From Leucoraja ocellata (taxonomy: Eukaryota), in the NCBI GenBank assembly GCA_036785375.1, contig JAWMAR010000541.1, positions 248,001-312,000 on the forward strand: a stretch of 64,000 bases of DNA, read 5' to 3'. Shown here in pieces: positions 7,776 through 56,793 of this stretch. A program made the translations under genes and the position numbers. The notes below the pieces were generated by a model that did not search any database, was not told where the DNA came from, and saw only the letters and a program-made list of their open reading frames with translations. Every line of letters begins with the position of its first letter. Position 1 is the stretch's first letter.

Positions 7776-8093
7776 NNNNNNNNNNNNNNNNNNNNNNNNN
7801 NNNNNNNNNNNNNNNNNNNNNNNNNNNNNNNNNNNNNNNNNNNNNNNNNNNNNNNNNNNNNNNNNNNNNNNNNNNNNNNNNNNNNNNNNNNNNNNNNNNN
7901 NNNNNNNNNNNNNNNNNNNNNNNNNNNNNNNNNNNNNNNNNNNNNNNNNNNNNNNNNNNNNNNNNNNNNNNNNNNNNNNNNNNNNNNNNNNNNNNNNNNN
8001 NNNNNNNNNNNNNNNNNNNNNNNNNNNNNNNNNNNNNNNNNNNNNNNNNNNNNNNNNNNNNNNNNNNNNNNNNNNNNNNNNNNNNNNNNNNNN
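7776..8093. other. Assembly gap (318 N), probably hiding the beta2 Ig exon
   Basis: Run of N between the beta1 and TM exons; no Ig exon found in the sequenced flanks. Confidence 0.9.
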
Positions 8094-9450: not shown

Positions 9451-10811
9451 TATTGGCCCAACTTTGTCTGCACATTCTGCACAAATCCCAAATGCCTGCA
9501 CTATGTCCATAGCCGTCCAAACACTTCATATCCATTATATTATGTAATTGTATTTTAAATCTCATTTTACTCTTGTTTGTAGATTAATCAGTGGGGACAT
9601 GAGGCTTGCAGAGGAAACCAGGGTTCAGGGAACGAAGGTTGGATGGACAATAACAGAGCATGGACGGAGTGAGGGACAAGGGTGAGGCATGTTGTCTGTG
9701 CAAGGCTCCAACAAGCAAAATGCCCAGTTAGATTGGGGAATGAATCATTCTGGGCACATTTCCACAGACATGAAGTAGGTACAGAGATCTGACTGTGGGA
9801 TTGAGTATTTAATATTACCAGCCCACACTGTTCAGGCGACTACAACTACAGCTACAGTCACATCTGAGGCAGGTACAGCAATACTGCAGGGTGGGTTGGA
9901 ACCCACAAGGATCACTGAATACACCTGGGAAAGTCTGAGTCACGACCACTTGTGGTATCAAAAAATTACAGCTGGATTATTTGAGTTTTGTCTCAAATTT
10001 GGATTCTGGCTTGGGCAGCAGTAAAATTAGAGTGCTTGCTTCATAGAACCAGTGGCCTGGTTTTCAATCCTCAGTTGTTGTGTGGCGTTTGCATGTTCTC
10101 CCTTTCACCTTTAAGTCCCTCCCTTCTCTCTCGCTCTCTCCCTCTCCCTTCCCACTCCCCCCCCCCCTCCTCCTCCTCTCATCCCCCTCTCCCCTCCCCC
10201 CAAGACCTGTCGGGAACTTGATTCAATCCACTCTCATCTTGAATTCCAACAGATACAAGCTCAGCCTTAAAAGGCCACATACCCATTTCAGTTTAGTCTG
10301 GAACAGAACAGCCCTTCAGCCCACAATGTTTGCCCCAAACATAAACAGATTTTATCTGCCTGCACATGATCCATATCCCCTCTATCCTCTGCGCTTCCAT
10401 GTGCCCATCCAAAAGTCTCCTAAATGCCACCACCATTGTATCTGTTGTCACCACCATCACTGGCAACATGCTCCAGGCCTCCACTACTCACCAACAAACT
10501 TGCCTTGTATATCTCCATAAAACATTCTGCCTCTCACCTTAACCCTCTATTGTTGGACCCTGGAACAATCTCTGACTGTCTACTCTATCTATGCCTCTCA
10601 CAACTTTACTTCATTCTACACTAGGTCCAAGCCTCAACAACCAGTTTCTCACCAACAGACTCTACTAGCTTTGCCTGCCTCCAGACTTGTCATTCCACCG
10701 ACACTCCATGGCAACTACCCACAGCTGGACTGCTCCTGACAGTCCTCAGAGGCCTTTCCTTCATTCCCTTCTGCAATATGACAGAGCTTTTCTTCCATTA
10801 CCTCTATTCTA

Positions 10812-11372
10812 ATGCCCCTGTCCCACTTAGGAAACCTGAACGGAAACCTCTGCAGACTTTGCGCCCCACCCAAGGTTTCCGTGCAGTTCCCGGTGGTTTT
10901 TGTCGAAAGCAGAGGGAGAAGGGAGAAGGGAGGGAGAGAGAGAAGGGAGGGAATTAATGGCCACAGGGAGAACATGCAAACTCCCCACTGCAACTGAGAC
11001 TTCTATGTTCCGGCGATTATTTAAAAAAATTCAAAACCGGCCGCGACTAAAAATAGGTTGCCGTGGTGGAAGGTAAGACCTCCCTGGTGGAATAAAACTG
11101 GGTGGAAAAAAGGTCTTACCTTCCACTACCTGCTACCTCCGGCAACCACCTTCAACTAGCATGGCAACCGGCTTCAACTAAAAAATTACCGATTTTTAGT
11201 CGCGGCCGGTTTTGAATTTTTTGAAATAATCGGCAGATCCTAGAAGAAGCGGAAACCACTTTTAACCATTAGATAGACTGACAAAAACCTCCGGGAACCG
11301 CACGGAAACCTTGGGTGGGGCGCAAAGTCTCCAGAGGTTTCCGTTCAGGTCTCCTAAGTGGGACAGGGGCAT
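10812..11372. mobile_element. Non-autonomous foldback DNA transposon (MITE)
   Basis: About 80-bp terminal inverted repeats (ATGCCCCTGTCCCACTTAGG...) plus internal inverted repeats; TA on both flanks. Confidence 0.85.
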
Positions 11373-11799
11373 TACTCTATGGGAAGGATTCCTCACCACT
11401 CAGTGATGACCCCTACCCCACCAGTCCCACTCCTCTGCACTCTCCCAGGCAGCCGTCTCCCCTCTTTAGATCTTTAGGTTGTAACTATCAGTGTGACATC
11501 AACAGTCTCAACTTTTCCACTCACCTCACCTACTCCAACCTCTCCCCCTTCTGAATGTACAGGCCTAAGCTCACTCTGCACCAACCCCAACATTATATCA
11601 AACCCACCATCATGGGAGGTGCCGTGATAGACTGGTGAGCTGACCTCTACCATAGTGACACCAGGCACCAGCTCTCAGAGACCTGACTTGCCCTTGGACC
11701 ACAGACGACCATAATTCGAGTATTTCTGATTTGATCACTTTCAGCTGTCTGCCCTCTGCAGCCCTCCAACCTTGTCATTTCCCAGCCCCGCACGGCCCC

Positions 11800-13250
11800 G
11801 TTAACCTTCTCCCCAAACTCATAAACACACTGGCCTTGCGCACCCATTGTTCTGTCCCACTGAATTAATTTCCACACACCTCAACTCCATCTTAACTCCC
11901 CCCCCCCCCCCGACTCGTGTCCGAGACACCTCAGATCCCTTTTGTCTCTTCAATGACATCCATTTTCCAGCCCCCCCCCCCCCCCCACTCCCTCATCGTC
12001 ACTGTGGATGTTCAGTCACTCTCCCCCTCTATCTCCAACCAGGAAGGCCTTAAAGCCCTTTGTTTCTTCCTCGACCACAGAACTAACCAATATCCTCCAC
12101 TCTCCTCCACTGAGCGAAGTTGGTCCTTACTCTCAACAACTTTGACTCCTCCCATTTCCTCAAATCTAAGGCATAGCCACGCGCACTCACATGGGCCCCA
12201 ACTATGCCTGCTTCTCTGTAGAGTACGTCCAACAATCCCTGTTCCAGGCGTACACTGGCCTTATCCCCAAACCCTATCTCCACTACATTGTCGACTGTAT
12301 CGGGGCTGCCTCCTGCACTCAAATTCACTTGGACCATCTCCGACATCTCCCTTCCATTTCCTGATCTCACCATCTCCATCACTGGAGATAGACTATGGAC
12401 TGACATCTATCTGGACTACACTTCTTCCCATCCTGCCTCCTGAAAAGACTATCCCCTACTCTCAATCCCTCCATCTGCACCACTCCTTGCCCCAAGACAA
12501 GTTGTGTTCCATACAAGGACATCCCAGATGTTCTCATTCTTTAAGGAACAGGGATTCCCATCTTCCATCACAGGTGAGACCCTCAAGCAGGTCTCCTCAG
12601 TACCCCGCAGCTCCGCTTGTGCTCCCCCTCCCCCAACAGGGACAGAGTGCCCCTAGTCTTCACCTTTCACCCCATCAGCTGTTGCATACAGCATATAATC
12701 CTCCAACATTGTTGTCACCTCCAACAGGATCCCACCATTAGCCGCAGCCACATCATCACATCTTCATCCCTTTCCGCCTTCCGCAGAGACCATTCCCTCC
12801 GCAACTCCTGGGTTAACTCATCCCTTCTCACCCAAACCACCCCCTGCCCAAGTACTTTCCCCTGCAACCGCAGGAAATGCAGCACCTGTCCCTATAGCTC
12901 CCCCATCGACTCCATTTAACAACCCCGATTTTCTTTCAGGTGAGGCAGAGGTTTACTGCACCTCATCTACTATATCCGCAGTTCCAGGTGTGGACTCCTG
13001 TATATTGGCGAGACCAAGCACCGGCTCAGCGATTGTTTCACTGATCACCTCAACTCAGTCCACCTAGGCCTACGCGATCGCCCGGTTATTAAACACTTTA
13101 ACTCCCCTCATTCCCACACTGACCTTTCTATCCTGGGCCTCCTCCACTCTCTGAGGCCCAATGCCAATTGGAGAAATAGCACCTCATTTTGCTTAGGCAG
13201 TTTACACCCCAGCAGTATATAGATTTTTCTAACATTAAGTAACCCCTGTT
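11800..13250 (+). mobile_element. Degenerate Penelope-like retroelement (RT + GIY-YIG)
   Basis: Fragments TVDVQSL..SI...EGL, MGPNYAC, RVPLVFTFHP, TFPCNRRKCSTC, YIGETK and HFN. Confidence 0.8.
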
Positions 13251-14438: not shown

Positions 14439-14869
14439 AATGTATAAAATAGTTCGGGAGCGGGACAGGCTGGACGACAGGGGGCGTTTTCCCCGCGGCT
14501 GAAATGTCAAGTCCCGGGATGGTTTAAGAGAGTTGCCGAGACTTTCTTCACTCGAGTTACTGGACTTCTGGTACTGCGGGCTGCGGAAGTTTCAGGGCAG
14601 CGAGGAAAACAAGGAATACACTACTGTATCGTGCAGGGAGATGGTGCCCAAGATCAGAGGTAAGTTTACGGAATGGTGGGTTTTGTCAAGGGGCCGAATG
14701 CGACACTTCCATTACTAGTGTGGACAGCATCCCTACATCACCCTAAAGCCCGTGTCCTTCCACTACCAGCTCCGTGGTCGCGGAGACACGGAGCCGCGAG
14801 TGAGCGCTGAGACCCGGCAAGATGCCAGATCGGGACAGACCCATCACAGAAGTCACAGTCGCTACTCAC

Positions 14870-14966
14870 CGACTCCAACATCGTGCTGTCCAGGGAGCAG
14901 CAGGGAACAGAACAAGAGCGCAACCCTGAGCCACAGGGAGCGGAGCTGGGCGGCGCCGTCCTTCAT
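14870..14966 (-). CDS. mhc2b: MHC class II beta chain, exon 1 (signal peptide)
   Basis: Manual translation gives MKDGAAQLRSLWLRVALLFCSLLLPGQHDVGV plus 1 nt (97 nt, phase 1), followed by a GTGAGT donor. The leader is hydrophobic and TATA and CCAAT boxes lie directly upstream. Confidence 0.85.
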
Positions 14967-15042
14967 CACCGCTCACTGGGCACCAACTACAGCAAAGATC
15001 CGACAGCCTGGAGCTAAACAGCAGCGACAAGACCACACCCGC

Positions 15043-15136
15043 TTTATATACCGACCCAGCAGCACAAACCAATCACAGCCGGGTAGAGAGGGGCCAATCA
15101 CAGCCGGGCAGAGAGGGGCCAATCACAGCAGGGCGG
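15043..15136 (-). promoter_or_regulatory. Class II beta proximal promoter: TATA box, three tandem Y boxes (inverted CCAAT) and a GC box
   Basis: TATATAAA at 15050-15043. CTGTGATTGG on the gene strand three times (CCAAT on + at 15069, 15094, 15119; 25-bp period). GGGCGG at 15131-15136. Confidence 0.75.
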
Positions 15137-15147
15137 AGGTGGGCAGG

Positions 15148-16094
15148 TTCACAAGTGATAGGATGAGAATTAGACCATTCGGCCCATCGAGTCCACCGTC
15201 ATTCAATCATGGCTCTGCCTCCTAAACCCATTTTCCTGCCTTCTCCCCAAAAAAATTGACACCCGTTCTAATCAGGTCTATCTCTGCCTTAAAATCCCTA
15301 CTGACGGCCTCCACGGCTCTCTGTGGCAATGAGTTCCTCAGATTAAATACTTGTGACGAAAGAACTTCCTCCTCACCTCCTTTCTGAAGAAACATAGAAA
15401 TTAGGTGCAGGAGTAGGCCATTCGGCCCTTCAAGCCTGCACCGCCATTCAATATGATCATGGCTGATCATCCAACTCAGTATCATAGAAACATAGAAATT
15501 AGGTGCACGAGTAGGCCATTCGGCCCTTCGAGCCTGCACCGCCATTCAATATGATCATGGCTGATCATCCAACTCAGTATCCCGTACCTGCCTTCTCTCC
15601 ATACCCCCTGATCCCCTTAGCCACAAGGGCCACATCTAACTCCCTCTTAAATATAGCCAATGAACTGGCCTCAACTACCCTCTGTGGCAGAGAGTTCCCG
15701 AGATTCACCACTCTCTGTGTGAAATAAGTTCTTCTCATCTCGGTTTTAAAGGATTTCCCCTTTATCCTTAAGCTGTGACCCCTTGTCCTGGACTTCCCTA
15801 ACATCGGGAACAATCTTCCTGCATCTAGCCTGTCCAACCCCTTAAGAATTTTGTAAGTTTCTATAAGATCCCCTCTCAATCTTCTAAATTCTAGAGAGTA
15901 TAAACCAAGTCTATCCAGTCTTTCTTCATAAGACAGTCCTGACATCCCAGGAATCAGTCTGGTGAACCGTCTCTGCACTCCCTCTATGGCAATAATGTCC
16001 TTCCTCAGATTTGGAGACCAAAACTGTACGCAATACTCCAGGTGTGGTCTCACCAAGACCCGGTACAACTGCAGTAGAACCTCTCTACTCCTAT
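15148..16094 (-). mobile_element. Stacked CR1 3' ends: an older tail at 15148-15387 and a young CR1 3' segment at 15388-16094 with a duplicated terminus
   Basis: ORF 15574-16068 (YRVLVRPHLEYCVQFWSP...GEKAGTGY); about 98 bp of the 3' terminus is tandemly repeated. Confidence 0.9.
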
Positions 16095-16098
16095 TGCA

Positions 16099-16692
16099 AT
16101 GAAATCAATCAGTCAAATCTGGGGTAATGTGGGGGGCCCAATACGGGCACAAGAGATAAAGCTCCAGCGGATACTTCGCCTCCTCACGTCGGCCATCACA
16201 GCCTATGCTCGTAGCGTGCAGACTACGGAGATGAGTACACACCAGCAGGATGTGCTGGCGTTGATGTGTATAACTCAGTTTGAGTTAAACAACCTCCGGA
16301 GGGAAAACATAAGACCTGCCCTCAACCCAAAATTTGCTGGCTTGTGCAAAGCTCCAGCTATGGAGACAGAATCGTTATTATTTTGAAACGACCTCAACAA
16401 ACAGCTGAAGGATATGGAAGAGGCATCCAAAACCTTCAGTCTCATGAGGGCAGGCCCAGCGACAAGCAAACCTAGAACAATTCTAACACCCAAGCGGCAG
16501 CACACCACTGCATCCACCAGTCGGCGTCTGGAACATGGGACTGGTGAAAGCTTGGGGCCGCATTATCCCCAAAGACCTTTTTTAGGTCAGGGCCCGCCGC
16601 GGACCCCCTGGAAAATGCGCCTCCCCCCAACATCGCCAGCACGTCGACAAGGCAAAGCTCTAAGGAAAAAGAAATCACAAAGTCGTCAATAA
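16099..16692 (+). pseudogene. DIRS gag-like ORF1, C-terminal part (one internal stop at 16384-16386)
   Basis: ELNNLRRENIRPALN, LLF*NDL and an Arg/Lys/Pro-rich tail; homologous to the decayed copy near 47400 (KVPAVNQVIWG). Confidence 0.7.
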
Positions 16693-16694
16693 CC

Positions 16695-18621
16695 ATGGAG
16701 ATAGGTGGTTCCTACCAGCATACAGAGAATAAGGGTGCCTTACTAACAGGGGGAAGGTTACACTTGTTTAAAGAAGCATGGGGATTGATCACTAATGATA
16801 AATATATACTCAATAGCATTGGAGGATATAAAATTCAATTTATTTCAAAAACACCGCCAGTTCAACACCGGCCCGAAAGGGTATTTTTTCTCTCCAAAAA
16901 AGAACAACAGGAGGGACAAGCTGAACTGGTGAGACTTATAAACAAAGGGGTCATAGAAAAAACCAAACATGAGCCCTTGGAATTTGTTTCCAACATATTT
17001 ACAAAAACTAAAAAAGATGGTGGATGTCGCATCATCATTGACTTAACATCCCTGAATAATTTTGTTAAGTATATACATTTCAAAATGGAAACATTTGTGA
17101 CTGCTAGACAACTGATTTCCAAAGGATACTATATGGCAAGCATTGATCTCAAAGATGCTTACTATCTGGTACCTATACATAAGGATTATAGCAGATACCT
17201 TAAATTTATCTGGATGGGGGAGCTGTGGCAGTATAAAGCACTGCCTAATGGGCTTACTTCAGCCCCAAGATTATTCACTAAAATATTAAAACCAGCCATG
17301 GCAACATTAAGGAAACATAATCATATAGTCATGGCATATTTGGACGACATCCTCATAGTTGGGAAAACTATGGAATTGGCTGTAGCAGCAGTATCAGCTA
17401 CTAAACAGCTCCTAGAAGCACTAGGGTTCGTCTTACATCCAGATAAATCCAAGTTAAATCCATCCACGATAATGGACCACCTGGGTTTCACAATTAACTC
17501 AGTCCAAATGACTATTACCCTGCCAAGGGAAAAGATGATTGCATTAGTACAATCATGCAATAACTTAAAGATTAACAAAAAACCAACTATTCGACAAATG
17601 GCAGCAGTAATTGGGAAAATGGTAGCAGCATTTCCGGCTATCCAATTTGGACCTTTGCACTATCAAAATTTACAAAGAGCAAAGGTGAAGGCACTAAAAC
17701 AACATAAAGGTCATTATGACCGAGTCATGATTTTACCCCCTGAAGCAATATCAGAGCTACAGTGGTGGATACAAAATATTTGGCATAGTTGTAGTCCTAT
17801 TATTATTACTAATGCTACTTTAGTACTCCAAACAGATGCCAGTGCTAAAGGCTGGGGAGCAACTAACTCCATAACCAGCACAGGTGGTAGATGGACTAAC
17901 TTAGAATCATCATTACTATCTACACTGGGCATTAATTATTTGGAAATGTTGGGCGCCTTTTATGGTTTGAAAGCATATGTATCCAATATGCATCACTTGC
18001 ATGTTAGATTACAAATAGACAATACTACGTGTGGTGGCTTACATTAACCATATGGGCGGCATAAAATCTTTATCATGCGACAAATTGGTCAATACGATTT
18101 GGCAATGGTGTGTCGAAAGACATATTTGGCTTTCAGCTACCTATCTACCAGGTAAGCTAAATACAGTGGCGGACACCAGGTCACGCAAATTCAATGACAA
18201 CATTGAATGGATGTTAAATCCTAAAGCATTTGCTAAAATTGTCAAGCAATATGGAAAGCCAGATATCGATTTATTTGCATCAAGACTGAATCACCAATTA
18301 ACTACGTATGTCGCGTGGGAACCAGATCCAGAGGCAGCAGCGGTAGATGCCCTCACGCTGGATTGGGGAAAGTTCTTTTTCTATGCCTTTCCTCCCTACT
18401 GCCTCATCAGTCGGGTACTTCGCAAAATCCAGATGGATTCAGCATCTGGAATTTTGGTGGTACCCGACTGGCCTACACAGCCATGGTTCCCAGTACTACA
18501 TGACATGGTGGTGGAATCACCAATGGTGTTTCCCAGTCATCCAGGGCTATTGACTCACCCAGTGTCAGGCATAAGCCATCCATGCCATCAAGACATGAAA
18601 CTCCTGGGTTGCAGATTCTAA
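16695..18621 (+). CDS. DIRS reverse transcriptase / RNase H / N6-adenine-methyltransferase-like polyprotein (one +1 frameshift near 18030)
   Basis: RT: IDLKDAY, LPNGLTSAP, YLDD. RNase H: TDASAKGWG, INYLE, DNTT. MT: IDLFASRLN, YAFPP, PDWPTQPWF. The ORF track splits it into 16695-18047 and 18031-18621. Confidence 0.9.
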
Positions 18622-18647
18622 ACCGACCCTAACTGGACCTGGGATTA

Positions 18648-19592
18648 TTGCAACAAACCATCACCACCATGTCAGCATCCCTGAGAACATCTACAAAGAG
18701 GCAGTACCTAACCAACATCAAGAAATGGGAGAGGTACTGCCAAGAAACAGGGACTTCTTACGAAACAGCCACAGTAGCCAATGTTCTCGAGTTCCTGGCC
18801 TACTTACATCATCATGAGGATATGAGCTACAGTGCCATCAACACGGCACATAGTGCCCTCTCCAACTACCTCAAACCTGCAGGACATCAGCCCATGGGGT
18901 CCCATCCGCTGGTGGTCAAACTGATGAGGGGCATATATAACATCAAGCCCCCCAAGCCTAGATATACTCAAATTTGGGACATCAGTGTTGTGCTCACTTA
19001 CCTTCGGGACAGACCACCAGCAAGATCCCTCAGCCTTGAGCAATTAACATTAAAAACGCTCATGCTTATGGCACTAGTATCTGCACAGAGGGTCCAGTCA
19101 TTGCATAAACTTCGACTGGACGGCATGGAAACAACGTCAGACCAGGTAACATTCACTCTACAAGGTCTGATAAAACAAAGCAGGCCAGGAACATCCAACA
19201 TGCTAGTGGTATTCCGGGCCTACCCACCAGAACCACGATTGTGTGTGGTGACCCACCTCAAACAGTACATTGACACAACCCATAATATCCGAGGAAGTGA
19301 AAGAGCCTTATGGGTCAGCCACAAAAAACCACATGGGCGGGTAACGAGCCAGACCATTTCAAGATGGTTAAAACAGGTATTGGAAGCTGCTGGAATAGAC
19401 ATTAATGTTTACAAATCTCATTCCACCAGGGCAGCATCCACATCAACGGCAGCAAGGATGGATGTGCCTATTGACCTCATCCTGAACAAAGCAGGATGGT
19501 CGAGGGAATCCACATTCCGAACGTTCAATGACAAGCCTTTGGTGAAGCCTGATTTATTTGCAGCGAAAATATTAGAAACTGCAAATATTTAA
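18648..19592 (+). CDS. DIRS tyrosine recombinase (open frame; catalytic Tyr appears to be replaced by Asn)
   Basis: SAQRVQ, LIKQSR, HSTR and AGW motifs; C-terminal STFRTFNDKP where F-Y is expected. Confidence 0.9.
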   Translation: MQQTITTMSASLRTSTKRQYLTNIKKWERYCQETGTSYETATVANVLEFLAYLHHHEDMSYSAINTAHSALSNYLKPAGHQPMGSHPLVVKLMRGIYNIKPPKPRYTQIWDISVVLTYLRDRPPARSLSLEQLTLKTLMLMALVSAQRVQSLHKLRLDGMETTSDQVTFTLQGLIKQSRPGTSNMLVVFRAYPPEPRLCVVTHLKQYIDTTHNIRGSERALWVSHKKPHGRVTSQTISRWLKQVLEAAGIDINVYKSHSTRAASTSTAARMDVPIDLILNKAGWSRESTFRTFNDKPLVKPDLFAAKILETANI

Positions 19593-20092
19593 TTTAAAGC
19601 CCGGGGGAGCTATTTGTTTTTTGTTATTGTTAATAAATACCGTTTTGTTTTGAAAACAGATTCATTGGTTGATTACAATAACACTTCCTTCCTCAAGAGC
19701 TTTCGGCAGTGAGTGAGTAAAACTGTTACACGGTTTGAAATCACAGAGCTTTGAAATCTTCACGTAGTCACTCACGTGACTCCGAAGTAAAATAGTAAGA
19801 TTAAACGAGAACTTACCAGTTTGAAGTTTGATCTGTATTTTATGAGGAGTTACGATGAGGGATTACGTGCCCTCCGCTCCCACCCTCATTACATGGATCA
19901 AACTGATAATTGATGTCTCTTTATTCTTTACTATGTTACTTCAAATACGTGTGTCTGTCTGTGATTCCACACCGCTGCTTGGAAGCATGCCGCGCCTGCG
20001 CCCTGAGCGGGCTTCTTCACGTAATCCCTCATCGTAACTCCTCATAAAATACAGATCAAACTTCAAACTGGTAAGTTCTCGTTTAATCTTAC

Positions 20093-20806
20093 TATTAAAG
20101 ATGGGATAGCAGCACATTTGGAAAGTGGTGAAATCATTGGACAAAGTCAGCATGGATTTATGAAAGGTAAATCATGTCTGACGAATCTTATAGAATTTTT
20201 CGAGGATGTCACTAGTAGAGTGGATAAGGGAGAACCAGTGGATGTGTTATATCTGGACTTTCAGAAGGCTTTCGACAAGGTCCCACATAAGAGATTAGTA
20301 TACAAACTTAAAGCACATGGTATTGGGGGTTCAGTATTGATGTGGATAGAGAACTGGCTGGCAGACAGGAAGCAAAGAGTAGGAGTAAACGGGTCCTTTT
20401 CAGAATGGCAGGCAGTGACTAGTGGGGTACTGCAAGGCTCAGTGCTGGGACCCCAGCTATTTACGATATATATTAATGATTTGGATGAGGGAATTGAAAG
20501 CAATATCTCCAAATTTGCGGATGACACTAAGCTGGGGGGCAGTGTTAGCTGTGAGGAGGATGCTAGGAGACTGCAAGGTGACTTGGATAGGCTGGGTGAG
20601 TGGGCAAATGCATGGCAGATACAATATAATGTGGGTAAATGTGAGGTTATCCACTTTGGTGGCAAGAACAGGAAAGTAGACTTTTATCTGAATGGTGGCC
20701 GATTGGGAAAGGGGGAGATGCAGCGAGACCTGTGTATCATGGTACACCAGTCATTGAAAGTAGGCATGCAGGTGCAGCAGGCAGTGAAGAAAGCGAATGG
20801 TATGTG
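20093..20806 (+). mobile_element. CR1 RT segment of the same subfamily as 15388-16094 but on the opposite strand
   Basis: ORF 20118-20807 (SQHGFMKGKSCLTNL...YLDFQKAFD...KFADDTKL...QQAVKKANGM). Confidence 0.92.
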
Positions 20807-21410
20807 ATGTGGGGACACGGTGATGTGGGGACAGGGGGACAGGGTGATGTGGGGACAGGGGGACAGGGTGATGTGGGGACAGGGGGACACGGTGATGTGG
20901 GGACACGGTGATGTGGGGACAGGGGGACACGGTGATGTGGGGACACGGTGATGTGGGGACACGGTGATGTGGGGACACGGTGATGTGGGGACAGGGGGAC
21001 ACGGTGATGTGGGGACACGGTGATGTGGGGACAGGGGGACACGGTGATGTAGGGACACGGTGATGTGGGGACACGGTGATGTGGGGACACGGTGATGTGG
21101 GGACAGGGGGACACGGTGATGTGGGGACAGGGGGACACGGTGATGTGGGGACAGGGGGACACGGTGATGTGGGGACACGGTGATGTGGGGACAGGGGGAC
21201 ACGGTGATGTGGGGACACGGTGATGTGGGGACACGGTGATGTGGGGACACGGTGATGTGGGGACACGGTGATGTGGGGACAGGGGGACACGGTGATGTGG
21301 GGACAGGGGGACACGGTGATGTGGGGACACGGTGATGTGGGGACAGGGGGACACGGTGATGTGGGGACACGGTGATGTGGGGACAGGGGGACACATTGAA
21401 GTGGGGACAT
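20805..21410. repeat. G-rich minisatellite of mixed 16-bp and 24-bp units
   Basis: Units TGATGTGGGGACACGG and TGATGTGGGGACAGGGGGACACGG in irregular order. Confidence 0.97.
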
Positions 21411-21659
21411 GATGAAATGGGAATCAGGGATCACAGTGAAGGGGAGATCACGGTTCCTCCTTTTTTGATGTCAAAAGCCTTGATCAGACTTGTAATGTTC
21501 AAAATTCTAGATGATAACGTACTTGCACCTAAATGATGTTTGGCTGATTCTCCTCAAGATGATTCTTCCACCGCCCTTGAGATAGTTTAATGTGACTAAA
21601 TTCTTGTTATTACTCCATCTTTTGACGTTGGGAGACTCTTTCAATAGACAATATACAAT

Positions 21660-22430
21660 AGGCTCGGCCTTTAACACCATACACCCAATTAAACTCTATA
21701 ATCTGTTGGACATGAGCATTCACCCAGCCATGTGCCATTGGATCCTGCACTTTGTGACAAACAGACAGCAAAGAGTCAAGGTGGGTGAAAAACTCTCCTG
21801 CCCTCTGACTCTCAACACAGGAGCCCCCCCAAGGGTGCGTTCTGTCACCTCAGCTCTTCTCACTTTACACCAACAACCTCATATCCCAATGCAGCTCAGT
21901 TAAAATTTCAAATATGCAGATGACACAACAATAATTGGCCTAATCTCAGACAACAACGAATCACAATACCATCAAACAGTGGACAGCGCAGTCAAATGGT
22001 GCGCAGACAACAACCTCCAGCTTAATACATCAAAAACCTTAGAATCACCATAGACTTCATTCGCAAACAAAACCCCAAACCCCCGGTCCATGTCAACTCC
22101 CATCCCATAACCTCCACAAACTCATTCAAGTTTCTGGGCACCTATATCTGCAATAATCTTAAATGGCACATCAACGCAGACCAGCCCTCCAATGACAGAC
22201 AACACTAAGGACTCTTGATGTATATAGTGTCTTGTCTATGGTCTTTGTCTGTTCTTTTGCACTATGGTCTGTTGGTGTGATTTGTGATTTGTGATGTGGT
22301 GTGGATGCACTTTATTACTGTGATCTGTGTTGTTATTAGTGTTAATGTAAAGCAGCGTACCATCATGTACCGAACCCACATACCACCAACCCTGGTTACG
22401 TGACAAATAAAGATTCTATCTATCTATCTA
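21660..22430 (+). mobile_element. Rex1/Babar-type LINE fragment with a (TCTA)n tail
   Basis: SAFNTI, GAPQGCVLSP-like, KYADDTTIIGLI and FKFLG motifs. Confidence 0.75.
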
Positions 22431-23845
22431 GAAAATAGGTGCAGGCCATTCGGCCCTTCGAGCCAGCACCGCCATTCAATGTGATCATGGCCGATCATCC
22501 CCAATCAGTACCCCGTTCCTGCCTTCTCCCCATATCCCCTGACTCCGCTATTTTTAAGAGCCCCATATAGCTCTCTCTTGAAAGCATCCAGAGAACCTGC
22601 CTCCACCGTCCTTTGAGGCAGGGAATTCCACAGACTCACAACTTTCTGAGGGAAAGTGTTTCCTCGTCTCCGTTCTAAATGGCTTCCTCCTTATTCTTAA
22701 ACTGTGGTCCTTGGTTCTGGACTCCCCCAACATCAGCAACATGTTTCCTGCCTCTGGTGTGTCCAAACCCTTAACAATCTTATATGTTTCAATGAGATCC
22801 GCCCTCATACTTTTAAACTCCAGAGTGTACAAGCCCAGCCGCTCCATTCTCTCAGCATATGCCAGTCCTACCATCCCAGGAATTAACCTTGTAAACCTAC
22901 GCTGCACTCCTTCAATAGCAAGAATGTCCTTCCTCAAATTAGGGGACCAAAACTGCACACAATACTCCAGGTGTGGTCTCACTAGGACTCTGTACAAAAG
23001 CAGAAGGACCTATTTGCTTCTATACTCTATTCCTCTTGTTATAAAGGCCAACATGCCATTCGCTTTCTTCACTGCCTGCTGTACCTGCATGCTTACTTTC
23101 ATAGACTGATGCACAAGGACCCCCAGATCCCATTGTACTTCCCCTTTTCCCAACTTGACGCCATTTAGATAGTAATCTGCCTTCTTGTTTTTTATACCAA
23201 AGTGGATAACCTCACATTTATCCACATTAGACTTCATCTGCCATGCATCTGCCCACTCCCTCAACCTGTCCAAGTCACCCTGCATTCTCATAGCATCCTC
23301 CTCACAGTTCACACTGCCACCCAGCTTTGTGTCATCTGCAAATTTGCTGATGTTACTTTGAATGCCTTCATCCAAATCATTGATGTAGATTGTAAACAGC
23401 TGCAGTCCCAGCACCGAGCCTTGCGGTACCCCACTAGTCACTGCCTGCCATTCTGAAAGGGACCCGTTAATCCCTACTCTTTGTTTCCTGTCTGCCAACC
23501 AATTTTCTATCCATGTCAGCACTCTACCCCCAATACCATGTGCCCTATTTTTGTCCACTAATCTCCTATGTGGGACCTTTATCAAATGCTTTCTGAAAGT
23601 CCAGGTACACTACACCCACTGGCTCTCCCTTGTCCATTTTCCTGGTTACAGCTTCAAAAAAATTCCAGAAGATTAGTCAAGCATGATTTCTCCTTCGTAA
23701 ATCCATGTTGACTCGGACCGATCCTGTTACTGCTATCCAAATGTTCGTCTATCTCATCTTTTATAATTGACTCCAGCATCTTCCCCACCACCGATGTCAG
23801 GCTAACTGGTCTATAATTCCCTGTTTTCTCTCTCCCGCCTTTCTT
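22430..23845 (-). mobile_element. CR1 LINE RT and 3' end
   Basis: NYRPVSLTS, QHGF, GVPQGSVLG and LVRPHLEYC motifs. Confidence 0.92.
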
Positions 23846-26139: not shown

Positions 26140-26655
26140 CTTTGATGTCGGCATCTTCCCCACCACCGATGTCAGGCTAACTGATCTATAATTCCCTGTT
26201 TTCTCTCTCCCGCCTTACATTGGTTACCCTCCAATACACAGGAACTGATCCTGAGTCTATAGAATATTGGAAAATGATCACCAATGTGTCCATGATTTCC
26301 AGAGCCACTTCCGTAAGTACCCTGGGATGCAGACCACCAGGCCCTGGGGATTTATCAGCCTTCAGTCCCATCAGTCTACCCAACACCATTTCCTGCCTAA
26401 TGTGGATTTCCTTCAGTTCCTCCGTCACCTCAGATCCTCTGGCCACTAGTACACCAAGAAGATTGTTTGTGTCCTCCCTAGTGAAGACAGATCCAAAGTA
26501 CCTGTTCAACTCATCTGCCATTTCCTTGTTCCACATCATAAATTCACCTTTTTCAGTCTTGCAGGATACAACTTTGGTCTTAACTAATTTTTTCCTCTTC
26601 ACATACCTAAAGAAGCTTTTAATATCCTCCTTTATATTCTTGACTAGCTTACCTG
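26140..26655 (-). mobile_element. CR1 ORF2 fragment
   Basis: LNRYFGSVFT and KSPGPGGLHPRVL motifs. Confidence 0.85.
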
Positions 26656-26849: not shown

Positions 26850-29305
26850 TTCTATCTGAGCCATGAGCAAATTGGCGTAGGGTCGAGAAGATTAAAGAGT
26901 TGAACACATGGCTCAAAGATTGCATTGGAAGAAGTGGGTTTGAATTCATGGGACATTGGCATCGGTATTGGGGAAGGAGGCAGCTGTTCTGATGGGACAG
27001 AGTTCACCTGAACCCTGCTGTGACCAGGGTCCTGACGAACCACATATCCTGGGCCGATTATAGGGCTTTAAACTAAATAGTGGGGGGGTGGGTGCACCAA
27101 TTTGGAAATGTATGGATGAAGTTAAAGGAGAAGGAGAATGCAGGTTACTGAAGTCTCCAGAAGTAATAGGACAGAAAGTTTAAGAAGGGATAAGAATCTG
27201 TCAGGCAAAATGCATTTCGTTGTCTCTGTACTGTACACTGACAATGACAATTAAAATTGAATCTGAATCTGAATCTGAAAATGGGGACCAATTTGAGAAG
27301 TGGGGTGGTGAATACTGAAATATATTTGAATGCACACAGTCTACTGAAGGTGGATGAGCTTATAGCACAGTTAGAAATTGGTAGATATGACATAGTGAGC
27401 ATCACAGAGACGTGATTGAAAGAGGATCATTGCTGAGAGCTGAATATCCAAGTTTACACGTCCTATCAAAAAGACCGACAGGTGGGCAGAGTGGGCGAGG
27501 TAGCTTTGCTGGTAAGGAATGAAATTCAACCTATAGCAAGGGGTGACAGGATAATAAGATGTAGAATCTCTGTGGGTCGAGCTAAGAAACTGCAAGTTCT
27601 TCTTATCAAGTCCACACACAAGATTAGTTCAGCCAGAGCTGAACACACTTCTCGGCATTTGCATACAATGGTGTCTGTCTTGCACTTCTTGTGCTTGGTG
27701 GTGGAAAGATTGGTGGAAACAGGGCCGCAACGTGAACGCTCTTGACCCCAACTGCACGGTTAAAAAGACACTGAAGGGAGTTATATACAGAGTCCAAAAG
27801 GAGCCAGCATATAGGGAACAAATCATATAAGTAGAAACAATCGGCATGTAAGAAAGACAATGGTGGTCATGGTGGATTTCTACATTCAGGTAGACTAGGG
27901 AAATCAGGTTGGTACTGGCTCCCAAGCGAAGTAACTTAAAGTGCCTATGAGATGGCTTCTTAGAGCAGCTTGCAGTCGAGCCCACTAGGGAAAAGCCATT
28001 CTGGATCTAGTATTGTGTAACAAACCGGATTTGATTAGGGAGCTTGAGGTAAAGGAACCCCTTTGAGGTAGTGACCATAATATAACATTCAGCCAGCAGT
28101 TTGAGAGGGAGATGAAATCAGATGTGTCGGTATTATTGTTGAATTTAGGTAACTACAGAGGGATGAGGGAGGAGCTGACTAAAGTTGATTGGAAAGGGAC
28201 CTCAGCAGTAATGATGGTGGAGCAACAATGGCAGAAGTTTCATGGAGGAACACGGAAAACACAGGATCTTTTCATCCCAAAGAGGAAGAAAGAGTCAAGG
28301 GGAGAATGAGGTGAGTGTGACAGACAAAGGAAGTCAAAGACAGCATAAGGTAAAAGAGCAGGTGTATAATATTGCAAAGATCACTTGGAAGCTGGAGGAT
28401 TGGGAAGCTTTTAAAACACAGCAGAAGGTAAATAAAAAAGCAATGCAGGGAGAAAAGATGAAATATAAAGATTAACTAGCCAACAATATTAAAGAGGATT
28501 GCAACTGTTTCTTCAGATATGTAAAGAGTAAAAGAGAGGCAAGAGTGGGCATTGGACCGCTGGATAATAAAGCTGGAGAGGTGATAATGGGGAATAAAGA
28601 AATGGCAGACAAATTGAATACGTTTTTTGCATCAGTCTTCACAGGTAGAAGACACCAGCAACGTGCCAGAATTTCAAGAGTCTGGGGCCAGAAGTGAGTG
28701 CAGTTCCTATTACTAAGGAGAAGGTACCTGGGAAGCTGAAAGGTCTGAAGGTGGATAAGTCTCCTGGACCAGATGGATTACACCCCAGGGTTCTGAAATA
28801 AGCTGTTTTAGAGATGGTGGTATTAGTAGTGATTTTTCAAGAATCACTAAAGTCAGGAGTGGTTCAAGAGGACTGGGAAATTACAAATTTCAATAAGAGA
28901 GCGAGGCAAAAGAGGGGAAACTTTAGGCCAGTTAGCCTGACTTAAGTAGTTGGTATGATTTTAGAGTCCATTATTAAGGATGTTTCTGAGTACTTAGAAG
29001 CCCATGATAAAATAGGCCAAAGTCAGCATGGTTTTGTGAAGGGGAGATCTTGCCTGACAAATCTGTTGGAATTCTTTGAGGATGTAAATAGCGGGATAGA
29101 CAAAGGAGAGTCAGTAGATGTTGTTTACTTGGATTTTACAAAAGGCAAGTGAGCCTGCTAAACATGACAAGACCCCATGTTGTCAGAAGGTTGGCTGGAT
29201 GGCAGAAGACAGGGTGGCGGTAAAGGTGGCTTTTTCTGGTTGGCTGCCAGTGAATAGTGGTGTTCTGCAGAGGATGCAGCTGGGGTCGTTACTCTTCACG
29301 TTGAA
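26850..29305 (+). mobile_element. Old degenerate CR1 (ORF1 end, EN and RT; resumes at about 31345-31580)
   Basis: Decayed EN and RT motifs (SDHN, KSPGPDGLHP, SQHGFVKGRSCLTNL). Confidence 0.8.
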
Positions 29306-31589: not shown

Positions 31590-33077
31590 GCAAAGGAACT
31601 TGAAGTTGAATAAAGGGGACTATGAAGGCATGAGAGGGGAGCTGGCCAAGGTAGACTGGAAAGGGATCCTAGCAGGAATGACGGTGGAACAGCAATGGCA
31701 GGAATTTCTGGGCATAATCCGGAAGACGCAGGATCATTTCATTCCAAAAAGGAAGAAAGATTCTAAGGGGAGTAGGAGGCAACTGTGGCTGACAAGAGAA
31801 GTTAGGGATTGAATACAACTAAAAGAAAAGATGTATAACACAGCAAAGAGTAGCCGGAAGCCAGAGGATTGGGAAACTTTCATAGAACAACAGAAAGAAA
31901 CAAAACGGGCAATACAGGCTGAAAAGATGAAGTACGAAGGGAAGCTGGCCAGGAATATAAACAAGGACTGTAAAAGCTTCTTTAGATATGTTAAGGGAAA
32001 AAGAATAGCAAAGTCAAATGTTGGTCCCTTGAAGGCAGACACGGGTGAAATTATTATGGGCAACAAGGAAATGGCAGAAGAGTTGAACAGGTACTTCCGA
32101 TCTGTCTTCTGTGAACAGGTACTTCGGAGGGAATTAGGAGCAACACTAGCAAGTTTGAGGATGACACAAAGCTGGGTGGCAGTGTGAGCTGTGAAGAGGA
32201 TGTTAGGAGGTTGCAGGGTGACCTGGACAGGTTGAGTGAGTGGGCAGATGCATGGCAGATGCAGTATAATATAGATAAATGTGAGGTTGTCCACTTTGGC
32301 GGCAAAAACAAGGGGGCAGATTATTATCTCAATGGGGTTAGGTTAGGTAAGGGGGAGGAACAGAGAGACCAGGGTGTCCTTGTACACAGATCACTGAAAG
32401 TTGGCGTGCAGGTACAGCAGGCAGTGAAGAAAGCTAATGGAATGTTGGCCTTCATAACAAGAGGATTTCAGTATAGGAGTAAAGAGGTTCTTCTGCAGTT
32501 GTATAGGGCTCTGGTGAGACCACATCTGGAGTATTATGTACAGTTTTAATCCTAATTTGAGGAAGGACATCCTTGTGATTGAGGCAGTGCAGCGTCGGTT
32601 CACGAGATTGATCCCTGGGATGGCGGGACTGTCATATGAGGAAAGATTGAAAAGACTAGGCTTGTATTCACTGGTTTTTAGAAGAATGAGGGGGAATCTT
32701 ATAGAAACATATACAATTATAAAAGGACTGGACAAGCTAGATGCAGGAAAAATGTTCCCAATGTTGGGCGAGTCCAGAACGAGGGGCCACAGTCTTAGAA
32801 TAAAGGGGAGGCAATTTAAGACTGAGGTGAGAAAAAACTTTTTCACCCAGAGAGTTGTGAATTTATGGAATTCTCTGCCACAGAGGGCAGTGGAGGCCAA
32901 GTCACTGGATGGATTTAAGAGAGAGTTAGATAGAGCTCTAGGGGCTAGTGGAGTCAAGGGATATGGGGAGAAGGCAGGCACGGGTTATTGATAGGGGACA
33001 ATCAGCCATGATCACAATGAATGGCGGTGCTGGGTCGAAGGGCTGAATGGCCTCCTCCTGCACCTTTTTTCTATGTA
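31590..33077 (+). mobile_element. CR1 with an internal deletion near 32110-32130
   Basis: The pre-RT segment is joined directly to the late RT/C-terminal segment and tail. Confidence 0.88.
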
Positions 33078-33439
33078 ACTTGGGAGTGGTAGTGCTGGAT
33101 TCCTGAAACGTTAATTTGCAGGTTTTATTGGTAGAAAGAAAGTCAAATGCATTATTTTCCAAAAAGATTAGAATATAAAAATAGGGACGGAATGCTGAGG
33201 CTTTATAAGGCACTGATGAAGACACATTTGGAATATTGTGGGCAATTTTGGGCCCCATATCCAAGGAAGGATATGCTGGTGTTGGAAAGGGAATTATGCC
33301 AGGGATGATTGAGTTAATGTGTGAGGAGCGTTTGATGGCTCTGGGCCTGTTCTCCCTGGAGTTCAGAAGGATGAGGGGACGTCTGATTGAAACCTACCAG
33401 ATAATGTTCTTAGCAGGGGATGGGGATATGATGTGAGAG

Positions 33440-34180
33440 GAGTAGAATTAGGCCATTCGGCCCATCGAGTCTACTTCACCATTCAATCATGCCTGATCTA
33501 TCTTTCCCTCTCCCTCCTAACCCCATTCTCCTGCCTTCTCCCTGTATCCTTCGACACCCTTACTAATCAAGAAAACTGTCAATCTCTGCTTTAAACATAC
33601 CCAATGACTTGGCCTCCATAGTCATCTGTGGCAATTAATTCCTCAGATTCACCACCCTCTGACCAAAACAAATCTTCCTCATTTCCTTTCTAAAGGTACA
33701 TCCTTTTATTCTGAGGCTGTGGCCTCTGGTCCTGGACTCTCTAACCATTGGAAACATCCTCTCCACTTCCACTCTATCCAGGGCTTTCACCATTCGGTAG
33801 GTTACAAAAAGGTCCTCCCTCATCCGTCTGATACTCCGGTGAGTACAGGCCCAGAGCCATCAAACACTGATCATACATTAACACAATCATTCTGCAATTC
33901 TCATAAACCTCCTCTGGATCCTCTCCAACGGCAGCATATATCTGAGGAAGGATGGGGCCCAAAGCTGCTCACAATATTCCAAATGTGGGATTACCAGTGC
34001 CCTACATACTTGTTTTTATATTCCAGTCCCTTCAAAATGAATGTCAGCAATCCATTTGCCTCCCATATCACCAACTGCACCAGCAAATTAACATTTTGGG
34101 AATCCTGCACCAGCAGCCCAAAGTCCCTCTGCATCTCTGATTTCTGAATCCTCTCCCCATTTAGAAATTAATCTATGTCT
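33440..34180 (-). mobile_element. Degenerate CR1 3' fragment
   Basis: LDRVEVERMFP..ESRTRGHSLRIKG motif and CR1 tail. Confidence 0.8.
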
Positions 34181-39996: not shown

Positions 39997-42510
39997 CAAA
40001 GATAAGAATCTAACTGGAATGCAGGTGGTGGAGAGAACAGTCAGGGTTGAAATCATTGATCATTAAGAAGGTTTTTGGCTGCAACCTTCCCTCCATTGAC
40101 GAACTGTACACTGCAAGGGCCAGGAAGTGAGCAGGTAAGATAATCTCTGATCCCTCTCATCCTGGCCACAAACTCTTTGAATCACTTCCCTCTGGAAGGT
40201 GACTCTGGACTGTCAAAGCTGCCACAGCCAGACATAAGAACAGATTTTTTTACACGAGTAGTCGTTCTACTCAATAACCAAAAATCTGTTGCCTCATTTT
40301 GCTCTGGTATTTTATTTAATTCACAAGTTTAATCGATAATGTTTTATTATTAATGTTTAATGTGCCATTCCTGTCACTGTATGTCGTTGTCACTTGCGGC
40401 CGGAGCACCAAGGCAAATTCCTTGTATGTGAATACTTGGCCAATAAACATATTCATTCATTCATTCATTAAACGTGCTAACAGAGGTTAATGAAGCTGCA
40501 ATGCGGGCAGAATGAGCCCTGGGGTTTATTTCACGGGGGATCCTGACTATATCTGCTGGGGAATGGTGCACATGCTGGGTCTCCTCCTTGACAAGTGAAA
40601 CTTACCCAATAGTGAAAGGCCTGGATAGAGTGGATGTGGAGAGGATGTTTACACTCATGGGAGAGTCTAGGAACAGAGGGCATAGTCTCAGAATAAAAGG
40701 ACATGCATTTAGAAAGAAGAGAGTGGTGAATCTGTGGAACTCTCTGCCACAGAAGGTAGTTGAGGCCAGTTCATTGGCTATATTTAAGAGGGAGTTAGAT
40801 GTGGCCCTTGTGGCTAAAGGTATGGAGAGAAGGCAGGTACAGGATACTGAGTTGGATGATCAGCCATGATCATATTGAATGGCGGTGCAGGCTCAAAGGG
40901 CCGAATGGCCTACTCCTGCACGTATTTCTATGTTTAAGATGAGGAGGAATTTCCTTGTCAGAGGATGGTGAGTCTGTTGGGTATTTTTAGGGCAGAGATT
41001 GACAGGTTCTTGATTAGTAAGGATGTCAAGGTGTATGTGGAGAAGGCAAGAGAGTGGGGTTGAGAGGGAAAGATAGTTCAGTCATGGTGGAGTAGACTTA
41101 GTGGACTGAATGGCCTAATTCTGATCCTATGACTTATGAACGATGAACAAATGCTGAGAGGTAACAGAGAACTTTAAACTAAGGAGAGGTTCTGATCAAA
41201 TGGACGGGTCAAATGGAGGAGTTACTTGTAGATCAAGCACTGATACTGGATGGTTGTCAAAATCAAGAATAATGTGAACTTCTCTGTCTGGGGAATTGTA
41301 CCTCACCAGGGTATATAGATTATACAGCTTCCTTATTTCTTCTTCTTCACCCTCTCAGTGTGTACTTTCCTTCCTTCCCCTCAGCCCACCCTTCCTTAAT
41401 TCCTTTTCCTCACACTGTCCTTTCCCTCTCCTTCCTTTCTGTCATTCCCTCAGTGTGTCCTTTCTCTCCGTCCCTCCACTCACTGTCCTTTCCCTCCCCC
41501 TTCCTCCCTTCATTCTGTGTGTCCTTCACCTCCATCCCTACACTCTCTCTGTGCACGTCGTTCCCCCAGTCTCCCTGCATGTCCTTCCCCCCGCCCTCCC
41601 ATTCACTCTCTCTCTCACTCTCTCTCTCGGTCCTTCCCCGTCACACTCAATGTGTCATTTCCCTCCCTCCCCTCGCCCTCTCAGTGTAATCTCTCGCTAA
41701 TGGCTGCTCACCAAGCTGCCCTGTAAACCCACCCATGAATGCATGGAGTCTGCATGTTCTCTCTGTGACTGTGTGGGTTTCCTCCGCATGCCCTGGTTTC
41801 CTCCCACATCCCAAAGATGTGCAGGTTAGTGTATTAATTACCCAAAGTGTGTGGGTGAATAGTAGAATTTGGTGTTACTGGGCACATGAGGGAGGGAATT
41901 AATAGCGTTGCTCTGACGCAGACTTGATGAGCTAATGGTCCTTTCATGTTATGAGAAATAAACAGGATATATATAGAATATTGAACCTCTATTCTATGAA
42001 TCTGAATCTCCCCTTCACCCCCCGCTGCCCTGCCCCACAGCTGAGCATCAGAAATTTGGAATGCCCCATTTTTCATGTTCCCTGTCACTGGCAGATATCA
42101 ATCCTGGAGCCCCTCACCTGGGTCATTGATAAGGTGGTGCCTTCCTGTCCCTCCCATTGACCAGGGCAAGGAGGTAATAGAGAGCGGTAGGAAGTTGAAC
42201 ACAGAATAGTATGGCACAGACACCATTAAGCCCATAGGGTGAATGTCATTCAGTCACATTTCCCAGTCCCCACTACAGCCCTGTGTTACAGTGTAAAGGC
42301 TGCATTGCCCAGCCCTGTCTGCCGGCACTCTGTGATCCACGGTCGGGTCTATCTGGAGTAAATGGAGCTGGTGATCATCTCCCGGTGACACCACAAAACT
42401 CAATATTGGACTGGGCACTTCCTGTCACAATCCACCACTGAATCCTGAGGCTCGTCCAGTGTTGGGAACACACCCAATGAAGTCACTACTTATACACCTG
42501 TGGCAGCATA

Positions 42511-50215: not shown

Positions 50216-50249
50216 CAACCCTATTTCAGAGATTTATTCAACTTTAAGC

Positions 50250-54264: not shown

Positions 54265-54546
54265 CCCAGAAGACAGTGGTTGGCCTCTCCAGACCCTCGT
54301 GCTCCACGTGGCAGGAGTACATGTCTCCCGGGCTCGGGATGAAGCTCAGGTAGGTGAACCTCTGGAAGGTGTAATCTCTCTTCGCGTAATACTCCGTGGT
54401 GTTGATTCCCTCAGTCACAGGCTCATCGTTCCGTTTCCACTTCATGTTGATGCGCGGAGGATAGAATCCGTCAGCCAGACAGATCAAGGTGTTGGGCTTA
54501 CCCCACTCCACGGGATCCTCGGGGTACATGGCAGCCTGAGGGGGCA
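54265..54546 (-). CDS. mhc2a: MHC class II alpha chain, exon 3 (alpha2 C1-set Ig domain)
   Basis: 282-nt AG/GT-bounded, phase 1/1 exon: VPPQAAMYPEDPVEWGKPNTLICLADGFYPPRINMKWKRN...YLSFIPSPGDMYSCHVEHEGLERPTTVFW. PNTLIC, FYPP and YSCxVEH are the hallmark motifs. Confidence 0.97.
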
Positions 54547-54969
54547 CTGTGGGCAGACAGGGTGAGAACAGGTTAACCAAGGTGGACTGGACACTGAAAA
54601 ACAGAATGCAATGTGTGTGGGTGGGGAATGTAGGCAGCAGAGACCAGGACTAGTTCACAACTAACTGGCAGAGCAGAAATGCAATCACAGATTTACAATC
54701 AACAGTGGAAGCTGATAAATGGTTGGTTTATTTGTGCCCCAGCACCTGCCCTGTGGTCTTCACCGGCAGTCAGTTCCATCAGTAAACCCTGGGGACAGTG
54801 GACGGGATGTGAACGGGTCACCTGGAGCTGGAGTGTGGGCTGGGGCAGGAACTTTGGTTGTGATATCATCGTCAACCCACATCAACCAATAAATAACCCT
54901 CAATCTAGGCTGTGGGCCGAGGAGCTTTATTCTACTGTTTCGTGACCCAAGTCACAGAACTACATGAAC

Positions 54970-56593: not shown

Positions 56594-56793
56594 NNNNNNN
56601 NNNNNNNNNNNNNNNNNNNNNNNNNNNNNNNNNNNNNNNNNNNNNNNNNNNNNNNNNNNNNNNNNNNNNNNNNNNNNNNNNNNNNNNNNNNNNNNNNNNN
56701 NNNNNNNNNNNNNNNNNNNNNNNNNNNNNNNNNNNNNNNNNNNNNNNNNNNNNNNNNNNNNNNNNNNNNNNNNNNNNNNNNNNNNNNNNNNNN
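56594..56793. other. Assembly gap (200 N)
   Basis: Run of N adjacent to a polypyrimidine tract. Confidence 0.98.

Follow-up and report, generated by a model that had tools for sequence, protein, structure and literature searches.

Inversion of the 5' part of a newly copied element is described mainly as a trait of mammalian L1, and long interspersed nuclear elements (LINEs) of the CR1 clade are thought to require their own 3' end on the RNAs that they copy. Here we analyze a locus of the skate Leucoraja ocellata at which a DIRS1-like retrotransposon lies between two CR1 pieces that stand on opposite strands and are consecutive in the second open reading frame (ORF2) of one CR1 subfamily; it is found in a 64,000-nt stretch of contig JAWMAR010000541.1 (assembly GCA_036785375.1, positions 248,001 to 312,000), hereafter the window. 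Twin-primed L1 inserts show deletions of 1-10 bp between their two arms in 22 of 32 cases and microhomology of at least 2 bp in 71% (PMC11702581), with 2-5 bp of microhomology in about 70% in a further study (PMC2912911). Germline L1 arms have medians of 751 nt (inverted) and 571 nt (sense), and cargo mobilized in trans by L1 can invert as well, as 3 of 23 pseudogenes did (PMC12016303). These inserts keep discrete target-site duplications (TSDs) of 12-18 bp, since the second primer protects the far end (PMC11702581), and antisense chimeras generated through twin priming have been discussed for L1 (PMC13174262). Among LINEs with short TSDs, the 5-nt overhang of ZfL2-1 is thought too short to prime a second cDNA, and the TSDs of CR1 are similar to the 3-5 bp of L2 (PMC4245944).

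Inverted segments of a different origin are found in copy-number-variant (CNV)-flanked inversions (delINV, INVdel and delINVdel), which account for 77% of complex structural variants in human germlines and are attributed to template switching or to the repair of simultaneous breaks (PMC5338099). Carriage of a retroelement by the machinery of another order also has a precedent in HERV-W, for which 135 of 213 copies are L1-made pseudogenes, copied without the element's own integrase (PMC5016936). DIRS1 elements integrate by recombination at a trinucleotide, without a TSD, and ATT is the commonest terminus (PMC3266345).

The skate locus resembles each of these systems in part. It shares with CNV-flanked inversions an inverted segment, loss at a breakpoint and short microhomology, but those are known from human population data at sizes of at least 5 kb, whereas the present event is read from a single sequence without an ancestral allele, and both of its breaks lie in nested retroelements, mimicking a 5'-inverted LINE (PMC5338099). 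It is like twin-primed L1 (PMC2912911, PMC12016303, PMC11702581, PMC4245944) in its arm layout, a 5-nt gap, microhomology, a sense arm of roughly 600 nt and an intact 3' tail; it differs in belonging to the CR1 clade, in its microsatellite tail, in having no 10-20 bp TSD, in flanks that do not rejoin and in an inverted arm of 4.7 kb that is mostly a foreign element. HERV-W pseudogenes carry poly(A), TSDs of 5-15 bp and transcript-shaped ends (PMC5016936), whereas the skate locus is one copy whose cargo would need the 3' end of CR1 itself. As in DIRS1-like elements (PMC3266345, PMC7192593, PMC9210276), the DIRS has gag, a frame for reverse transcriptase, RNase H and methyltransferase (RT-RH-MT), a tyrosine recombinase (YR), an internal complementary region (ICR) complementary to the termini, an ATT end and no TSD; unlike them, it is without its left end and half of gag, and its frames are broken.

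The window is dense in CR1 fragments, with 47 tblastn matches over its 64,000 nt, and its runs of N are confined to 7776-8093 and 56594-56793, so that the event and its surroundings are without N. The event was analyzed from this one sequence, and a donor was looked for indirectly, at the protein level. Self-BLAST split the colinear CR1 copy at 1405-2558 in two, with 1406-2013 matching 15490-16094 on the same strand and 2044-2558 matching 20805-20290 on the opposite strand. A first-pass annotation had described two CR1 pieces on opposite strands around a DIRS and consecutive in ORF2, and self-BLAST and alignment agree on this; the plus piece ends at 20805, one position before the end that had been given. 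The overall structure is real, and tighter than that annotation had it. Its parts, in window coordinates, are:

15147 to 15387, minus strand: older CR1-family 3' fragment, host of the 3' junction, cut inside ORF2 (71% to 33433-33701)
15385 to 15387, no strand: TGA, the sole TSD candidate of at least 3 nt, repeated at 20805-20807 (chance level)
15388 to 15483, minus strand: duplicate of the CR1 3' end, 96 nt, carrying a separate TTTCTATG-type tail (2/96 differences from 15486-15581)
15484 to 16103, minus strand: CR1 3' piece, the non-inverted arm, 620 nt, with the end of ORF2 in an open frame, the 3' untranslated region and the tail (self-BLAST, alignment, relatives)
16095 to 16103, minus strand: CR1 linker remnant, 9 nt, F-I-A codons, beside a 13-nt loss (linker relatives, null counts)
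16104 to 20096, plus strand: DIRS1-like element cut at its 5' side, with gag remnant, RT-RH-MT, YR frame, ICR and right terminus (Pfam, relatives, ICR)
19757 to 19869, plus strand: ICR with the circular junction, its right half equal to the right terminus and its left half predicting the absent left end
20094 to 20096, plus strand: ATT integration core, common to the DIRS end and a CR1 Ile codon (ESV-I-KDG in CR1 relatives)
20094 to 20805, plus strand: CR1 ORF2 piece (RT domain), open frame, stopping about 5 nt short of the start of the minus piece (alignment, Pfam)
20804 to 21454, plus strand: G-rich minisatellite of 16- and 24-nt units, starting abruptly with perfect units at the outer junction

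The two CR1 pieces belong to one subfamily, as had been proposed, and a check for a subfamily mismatch found none. They differ from the 1405-2558 copy at 27/513 and 45/521 nt and from older copies by 17-26%, and a single protein, P0003, matches them at 95.5% and 95.9% identity (P0006 is likewise 95.9% identical to the minus piece at the amino acid level); these counts and identities rule out two different subfamilies. The contrast between 5.3% and 8.6% divergence (Fisher p 0.04) reflects a regional trend that is also seen between other copies (18% versus 25%). Residues private to the CR1 pieces number 11/389, and the remaining five window copies of the subfamily range from 92 to 1154 nt. The RT domain matches Pfam RVT_1 (9e-25), and a CR1-type 3' hairpin and short-repeat tail are present. 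Identity is 81-92% to named Leucoraja erinacea, Mobula and Hypanus proteins and about 50% to CR1-type proteins of a stork; we take the clade to be CR1 from these relatives and from the form of the 3' end.

The DIRS runs in the same direction as the plus CR1 piece, as had been noted. Its gag remnant has a stop at 16384 and six relatives at 61-91% identity (four of them named skate records, the 91% match being a Leucoraja record), its RT-RH-MT is frameshifted near 18030, and its YR frame occupies 18633-19592. Pfam matches were obtained for RVT_1 (6e-20) and Phage_integrase, the tyrosine recombinase (2e-8); a Dam-like MT match (3e-4) lies below the cut-off, and RH was assigned through collinearity with relatives. 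Both the DIRS, with its broken coding frames, and the CR1 are now dead. ICR positions 19791-19869 are the reverse complement of 20018-20096 at 79/79 positions. The left end predicted by the ICR is present, with 5 mismatches in 37, at 45843, in a second DIRS; near the event no left end was found on either strand, allowing up to 12 mismatches, in line with the earlier statement that the left inverted terminal repeat is absent nearby and present in that other copy. The second DIRS (45843-50218, plus strand) is older and has ATT at both ends, a 61-nt tandem array at 46433-46733 and decayed gag and YR; its RT and MT gave no tblastn match.

The right end of the DIRS is indeed present within CR1 coding sequence, yet the junction is more than a fusion, since the element ends at the ATT of 20094-20096. 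The break at ATT recurs in the second DIRS, which begins and ends at ATT (50216-50218 on the right), and a third DIRS end, with the break in this same position, is contained in protein P0128, whose reading continues beyond it into unrelated flanking sequence. This shared core points to recombinase-type insertion: judged from its right end, the DIRS inserted into CR1 ORF2 by its own recombinase and in the same direction as CR1. Such an insertion implies that a whole DIRS within a longer CR1 predated the present structure, here or elsewhere. The converse order, a CR1 landing beside a DIRS end, is ruled out because the junction combines the ATT core of two other DIRS copies with the CR1 Ile codon. 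With ICR and terminus identical at 79/79 positions, the DIRS need not be older than the CR1 tails; in dating, 0/79 against 2/96 is not significant (p 0.5), nor is the other comparison (p 0.36), and the relatives found with the DIRS RT are at best 60% identical.

At the inner (inversion) junction, the gap between the CR1 pieces is 27 nt against other copies; it is not 30 nt because the 1405 copy carries 3 extra nt. The linker across this gap reads LAFIAKGFE in 8 of 9 relatives (at least 80% identity) and LAFIARGFE in the remaining one; on the minus strand, 16095-16103 are F-I-A codons, and the linker-compatible run is 10 nt long. The idea of a linker remnant arose from a resemblance and was then tested at that fixed position: comparable runs occur at 3/3957 DIRS positions and 2/5954 random window positions, and a 9-nt run occurs at 10/3957 DIRS positions. 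The 27 nt divide into about 5 nt between the arms, 9 nt kept and 13 nt lost inside the minus piece, so that the single gap of about 30 nt described earlier becomes a gap of about 5 nt and a separate 13-nt loss, and the inner-side loss comes to about 18 nt in total. The gag beside the junction reads AMKSI-SQ, against KVKSLNSQ in the closest relatives, and is one codon short of all six. That the DIRS is cut inside gag holds as first described; the exact point, 16094, does not, since 16095-16103 are assigned to CR1 and the DIRS starts at 16100-16104, with an overlap of 2 nt that is certain and of up to 5 nt. An array-like word of 8 nt lies in gag at a distance of 23 nt from this junction; it is one of three such loci, and neither join uses it.

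On the 3' side, the previously given start of the event, 15388, opens an extra 96-nt copy of the CR1 3' end (15388-15483) that lies ahead of the main piece. Both tandem tails carry the same variant before the tail (3' hairpin z -2.4), and the extra copy is probably the product of re-primed reverse transcription; genomic slippage is disfavored because it would not account for the two additional repeat bases in the second tail. The older CR1 that hosts this junction spans positions 506-768 of a 768-nt in-window reference copy (33433-33701 region), and no match to its upstream part was found beyond the event in 20806-22428. In both of the two testable insertions of a young CR1 into an old one, the host resumes within 4 nt: at 40718-40936 host position 515 is followed by 519, and at 31603-33078 position 80 is followed by 78, with a 6-bp repeat at the ends. 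The young CR1 3' ends at 15387 and 40936 entered their old CR1s at host positions 506 and 519, about 13 nt from each other, in a purine-rich stretch resembling the complement of the tail, a possible site preference.

At the outer junction, the end of the plus piece at 20805 meets the minisatellite with a 2-nt microhomology, GT. Decay of the array is confined to its right end, and the rest of the window lacks its core motif. This far flank, and the failure of the old CR1 to resume from the near flank, had been missed in the first-pass annotation. No TSD longer than 3 nt, and none of 10-20 bp, was found in the scanned registers; the TGA candidate has the size expected for CR1 and is also at chance level. 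The left flank matches 8 nt at 21456, but this was rejected as a distant TSD, as the host does not continue after it and one such 8-mer is expected by chance over the range searched. Microhomology of 2 nt at the outer and 2-5 nt at the inner junction is in the range of twin priming, yet it is also expected from end joining and often by chance.

The reading that we regard as best, at roughly an even chance and with a modest lean over twin priming, is a deletion-flanked genomic inversion, in place, of a DIRS-in-CR1 nest (the probabilities given here and below are judgements, not computed values). A young CR1 would have entered an older one by ordinary target-primed reverse transcription, with its 3' end copied twice, the tails and the host being what is seen of this step. 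A DIRS1-like element would then have integrated through its recombinase at an ATT in the RT region of the young CR1, in the same direction. A later rearrangement may have broken the nest twice. The break in CR1 ORF2 would have cost hardly any DNA, and the break between the DIRS gag and the G-rich minisatellite everything that lay between these two, namely the DIRS 5' part (some 1.3-1.6 kb by the second DIRS copy), the upstream CR1 and the rest of the old host. The 4.7-kb middle piece, now an inverted arm of 4702 nt, would have been rejoined backwards through short microhomologies, with the 13-nt loss and a 3-nt loss beside the inner junction, either by end joining or by replication template switching, and nothing would have been transported.

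DNA loss is seen at both breakpoints, about 18 nt on the inner side and the DIRS 5' part with the host remainder on the outer side. As the plus piece comes within about 5 nt of the minus piece, the far-side loss must have been simultaneous with the inversion rather than a later trimming. Loss accompanying inversion is routine for deletion-flanked inversions and exceptional for twin priming unless the old host ended at the insertion point. The old host that does not resume, the lack of a TSD longer than 3 nt, the abrupt start of the array and the length of the inverted arm all support inversion in place. A simple balanced inversion, the only inversion weighed in the first-pass annotation, is ruled out: the inverted DIRS 5' half that it would have placed near 20.8-22 kb was looked for within the window and none was seen, with neither a DIRS left end nor a gag 5' part found at 20.8-22.4 kb. 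An inversion accompanied by deletion at one of its ends would give the same picture as the earlier model, and it explains more. Recombination between two inverted CR1 copies is ruled out by reasoning, since it would leave whole chimeric copies at both breakpoints. Several observations nevertheless weigh against inversion in place. It places three rare events at one site within about 1-2% divergence (2/96 in the tails; 11/389 private residues); it also asks chance for a loss on the 5' side that takes all of the 5' parts, for a second break with a loss of only some 5 nt and for a DIRS in the same orientation, whereas twin priming yields each of these automatically. The gap of about 5 nt matches the commonest outcome for twin-primed L1 (1-10 nt, 22/32; PMC11702581), the sense arm of 620 nt comes close to the 571-nt median of L1 (PMC12016303), and the doubled tail speaks of irregular reverse transcription at the site. 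The host-resumption control comprises two insertions, and the age contrast between DIRS and CR1 is not significant (p 0.5).

The close rival is the model of the first-pass annotation, to which we assign a lower though still substantial probability: a whole DIRS in a CR1 exists elsewhere as donor, and a twin-primed CR1 retrocopy brought the DIRS here. A transcript from the DIRS promoter would have read into the CR1 3' end and been taken in trans by CR1 ORF2 protein; copying would have begun at the tail, where a first attempt failed and the next gave 620 nt, and also at an internal site, where the end of the minisatellite served as primer for 4.7 kb, and the cDNA ends would have joined via 2-5 nt, with target DNA lost or the old CR1 ending exactly there (TSD TGA). 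The geometry is exact, with the outer end of the inverted arm adjoining the start of the sense arm, and this part of the earlier inference stands along with the single subfamily, the 5-nt gap and the microhomology at both junctions, the latter two falling within the L1 ranges cited above. The 5' parts are all absent, as 5' truncation predicts, the DIRS is co-oriented, the doubled tail could have been made from one template, inversion of trans-mobilized L1 cargo is on record, and the 3-nt TSD candidate fits the peak of 3-5 bp reported for L2 and CR1 (PMC4245944). What does not fit is that the flanks do not rejoin, the old host failing to resume across the event where both controls do, that the TSD candidate is at chance level, that the array starts abruptly and that the inverted arm, at 4702 nt, is six times as long as the 751-nt median of L1 in the germline (PMC12016303). 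The 5' inversions obtained in culture trace to L1 in human cells and to a single Nimb-2 insert, with none from ZfL2-1, which makes a 5-bp TSD (PMC4245944). The RNA would also have to pass an AATAAA at 19632 and to cross the DIRS end, where Dictyostelium DIRS-1 RNA stops (PMC7192593); other sites on the would-be RNA match the array better than the one that was used, and no second inverted-consecutive pair was seen by eye among the 47 CR1 matches of the window. A protein search with a 46-residue junction query returned no DIRS-CR1 chimera among four candidates of 143-455 aa (three plain CR1 proteins and one DIRS end with another flank), a weak test because such a frame has no start codon in its DIRS part. 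A two-step history, in which a CR1 with a 5' inversion later received a DIRS in its inverted arm and then lost the DIRS 5' part and the rest of the arm, would require only short CR1 arms and would keep the recombinase-type right junction, but it requires the later deletion to end no more than about 5 nt from the original inversion junction and leaves the non-resumption of the host unaccounted for; we consider it improbable. Fusion of unrelated repeat copies during assembly strikes us as very unlikely: repeats, G-rich arrays among them, are dense in the region and the window has two N gaps at other places, but no inverted duplication of the kind left by a fold-back read is present, no N lies within 7 kb, the junction bears small and biologically typical losses, and the new junctions have only 2-5 nt in common, not enough for a repeat-driven misjoin.

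The surroundings hold further features. The event lies about 250 nt upstream of a promoter with TATA and CCAAT boxes and of a leader-like exon. This promoter-like block (14868-15140, minus strand) has three CCAAT boxes in a 25-nt repeat at 15069-15138 and a TATA box near 15043, and the 32-codon leader-like exon runs from 14966 to a GT donor; downstream exons were not found. At 54248-54559 (minus strand) lies an immunoglobulin C1-set exon (Pfam 8e-24) whose best solved relatives are major histocompatibility complex (MHC) class II alpha chains (E 3e-30); a scan of 94 frames gave neither an alpha-1 exon nor any other MHC exon. With a promoter nearby and an MHC class II alpha-like exon in the window, haplotypes with and without the event may exist. 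Other CR1 rearrangements include a CR1 split by 2.3 kb of mixed repeats, with a 66-bp direct duplication (23776-23841 and 26151-26216, 65/66) far above a normal TSD, and the CR1 at 31603-33078 (plus strand), which sits in an old CR1 and skips about 250 codons internally (ORF2 aa 468 to 715). The window also contains a Tc1-type DNA transposon at 42509-44143 that has terminal inverted repeats and, at 42878-43345, a transposase frame; a non-autonomous element at 10810-11374 with 95-bp terminal inverted repeats of 96% identity; integrase fragments (zinc-binding and C-terminal domains) around a CR1 at 60385-62502 (plus strand), which suggest a decayed element of long-terminal-repeat type; a 66-bp inverted pair of 97% identity, 31 kb apart (27205-27270 and 58385-58450); and, at 11896-13200 (plus strand), a decayed repeat of coding-like character whose open frames are long and which lacks a Pfam match; it looks Penelope-like.

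The processes involved are of known kinds, and cross-order carriage itself is already known; no report of a CR1 5' inversion or of a LINE-carried DIRS was found at the level of titles and opening abstracts, with subscription journals thinly covered. Under inversion in place, the locus would be a single dead, rearranged nest of repeats, and it would caution that twin priming can be mimicked by a deletion-flanked inversion passing through nested elements, the discriminating test between the two being whether the flanks rejoin. If instead the twin-primed retrocopy proved true, a DIRS in a CR1 would have lent its promoter, and a recombinase-type retrotransposon would have been moved by a LINE that twin-primed across 4.7 kb; skates would then be expected to hold a small family of chimeric DIRS-CR1 retrocopies. 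A non-L1 LINE with short TSDs, in a cartilaginous fish, would have produced a 5' inversion even though an overhang of 5 nt has been considered insufficient to prime a second cDNA. Inversion at the 5' side would extend from mammalian L1 to CR1, and DIRS promoters would feed cargo to CR1.

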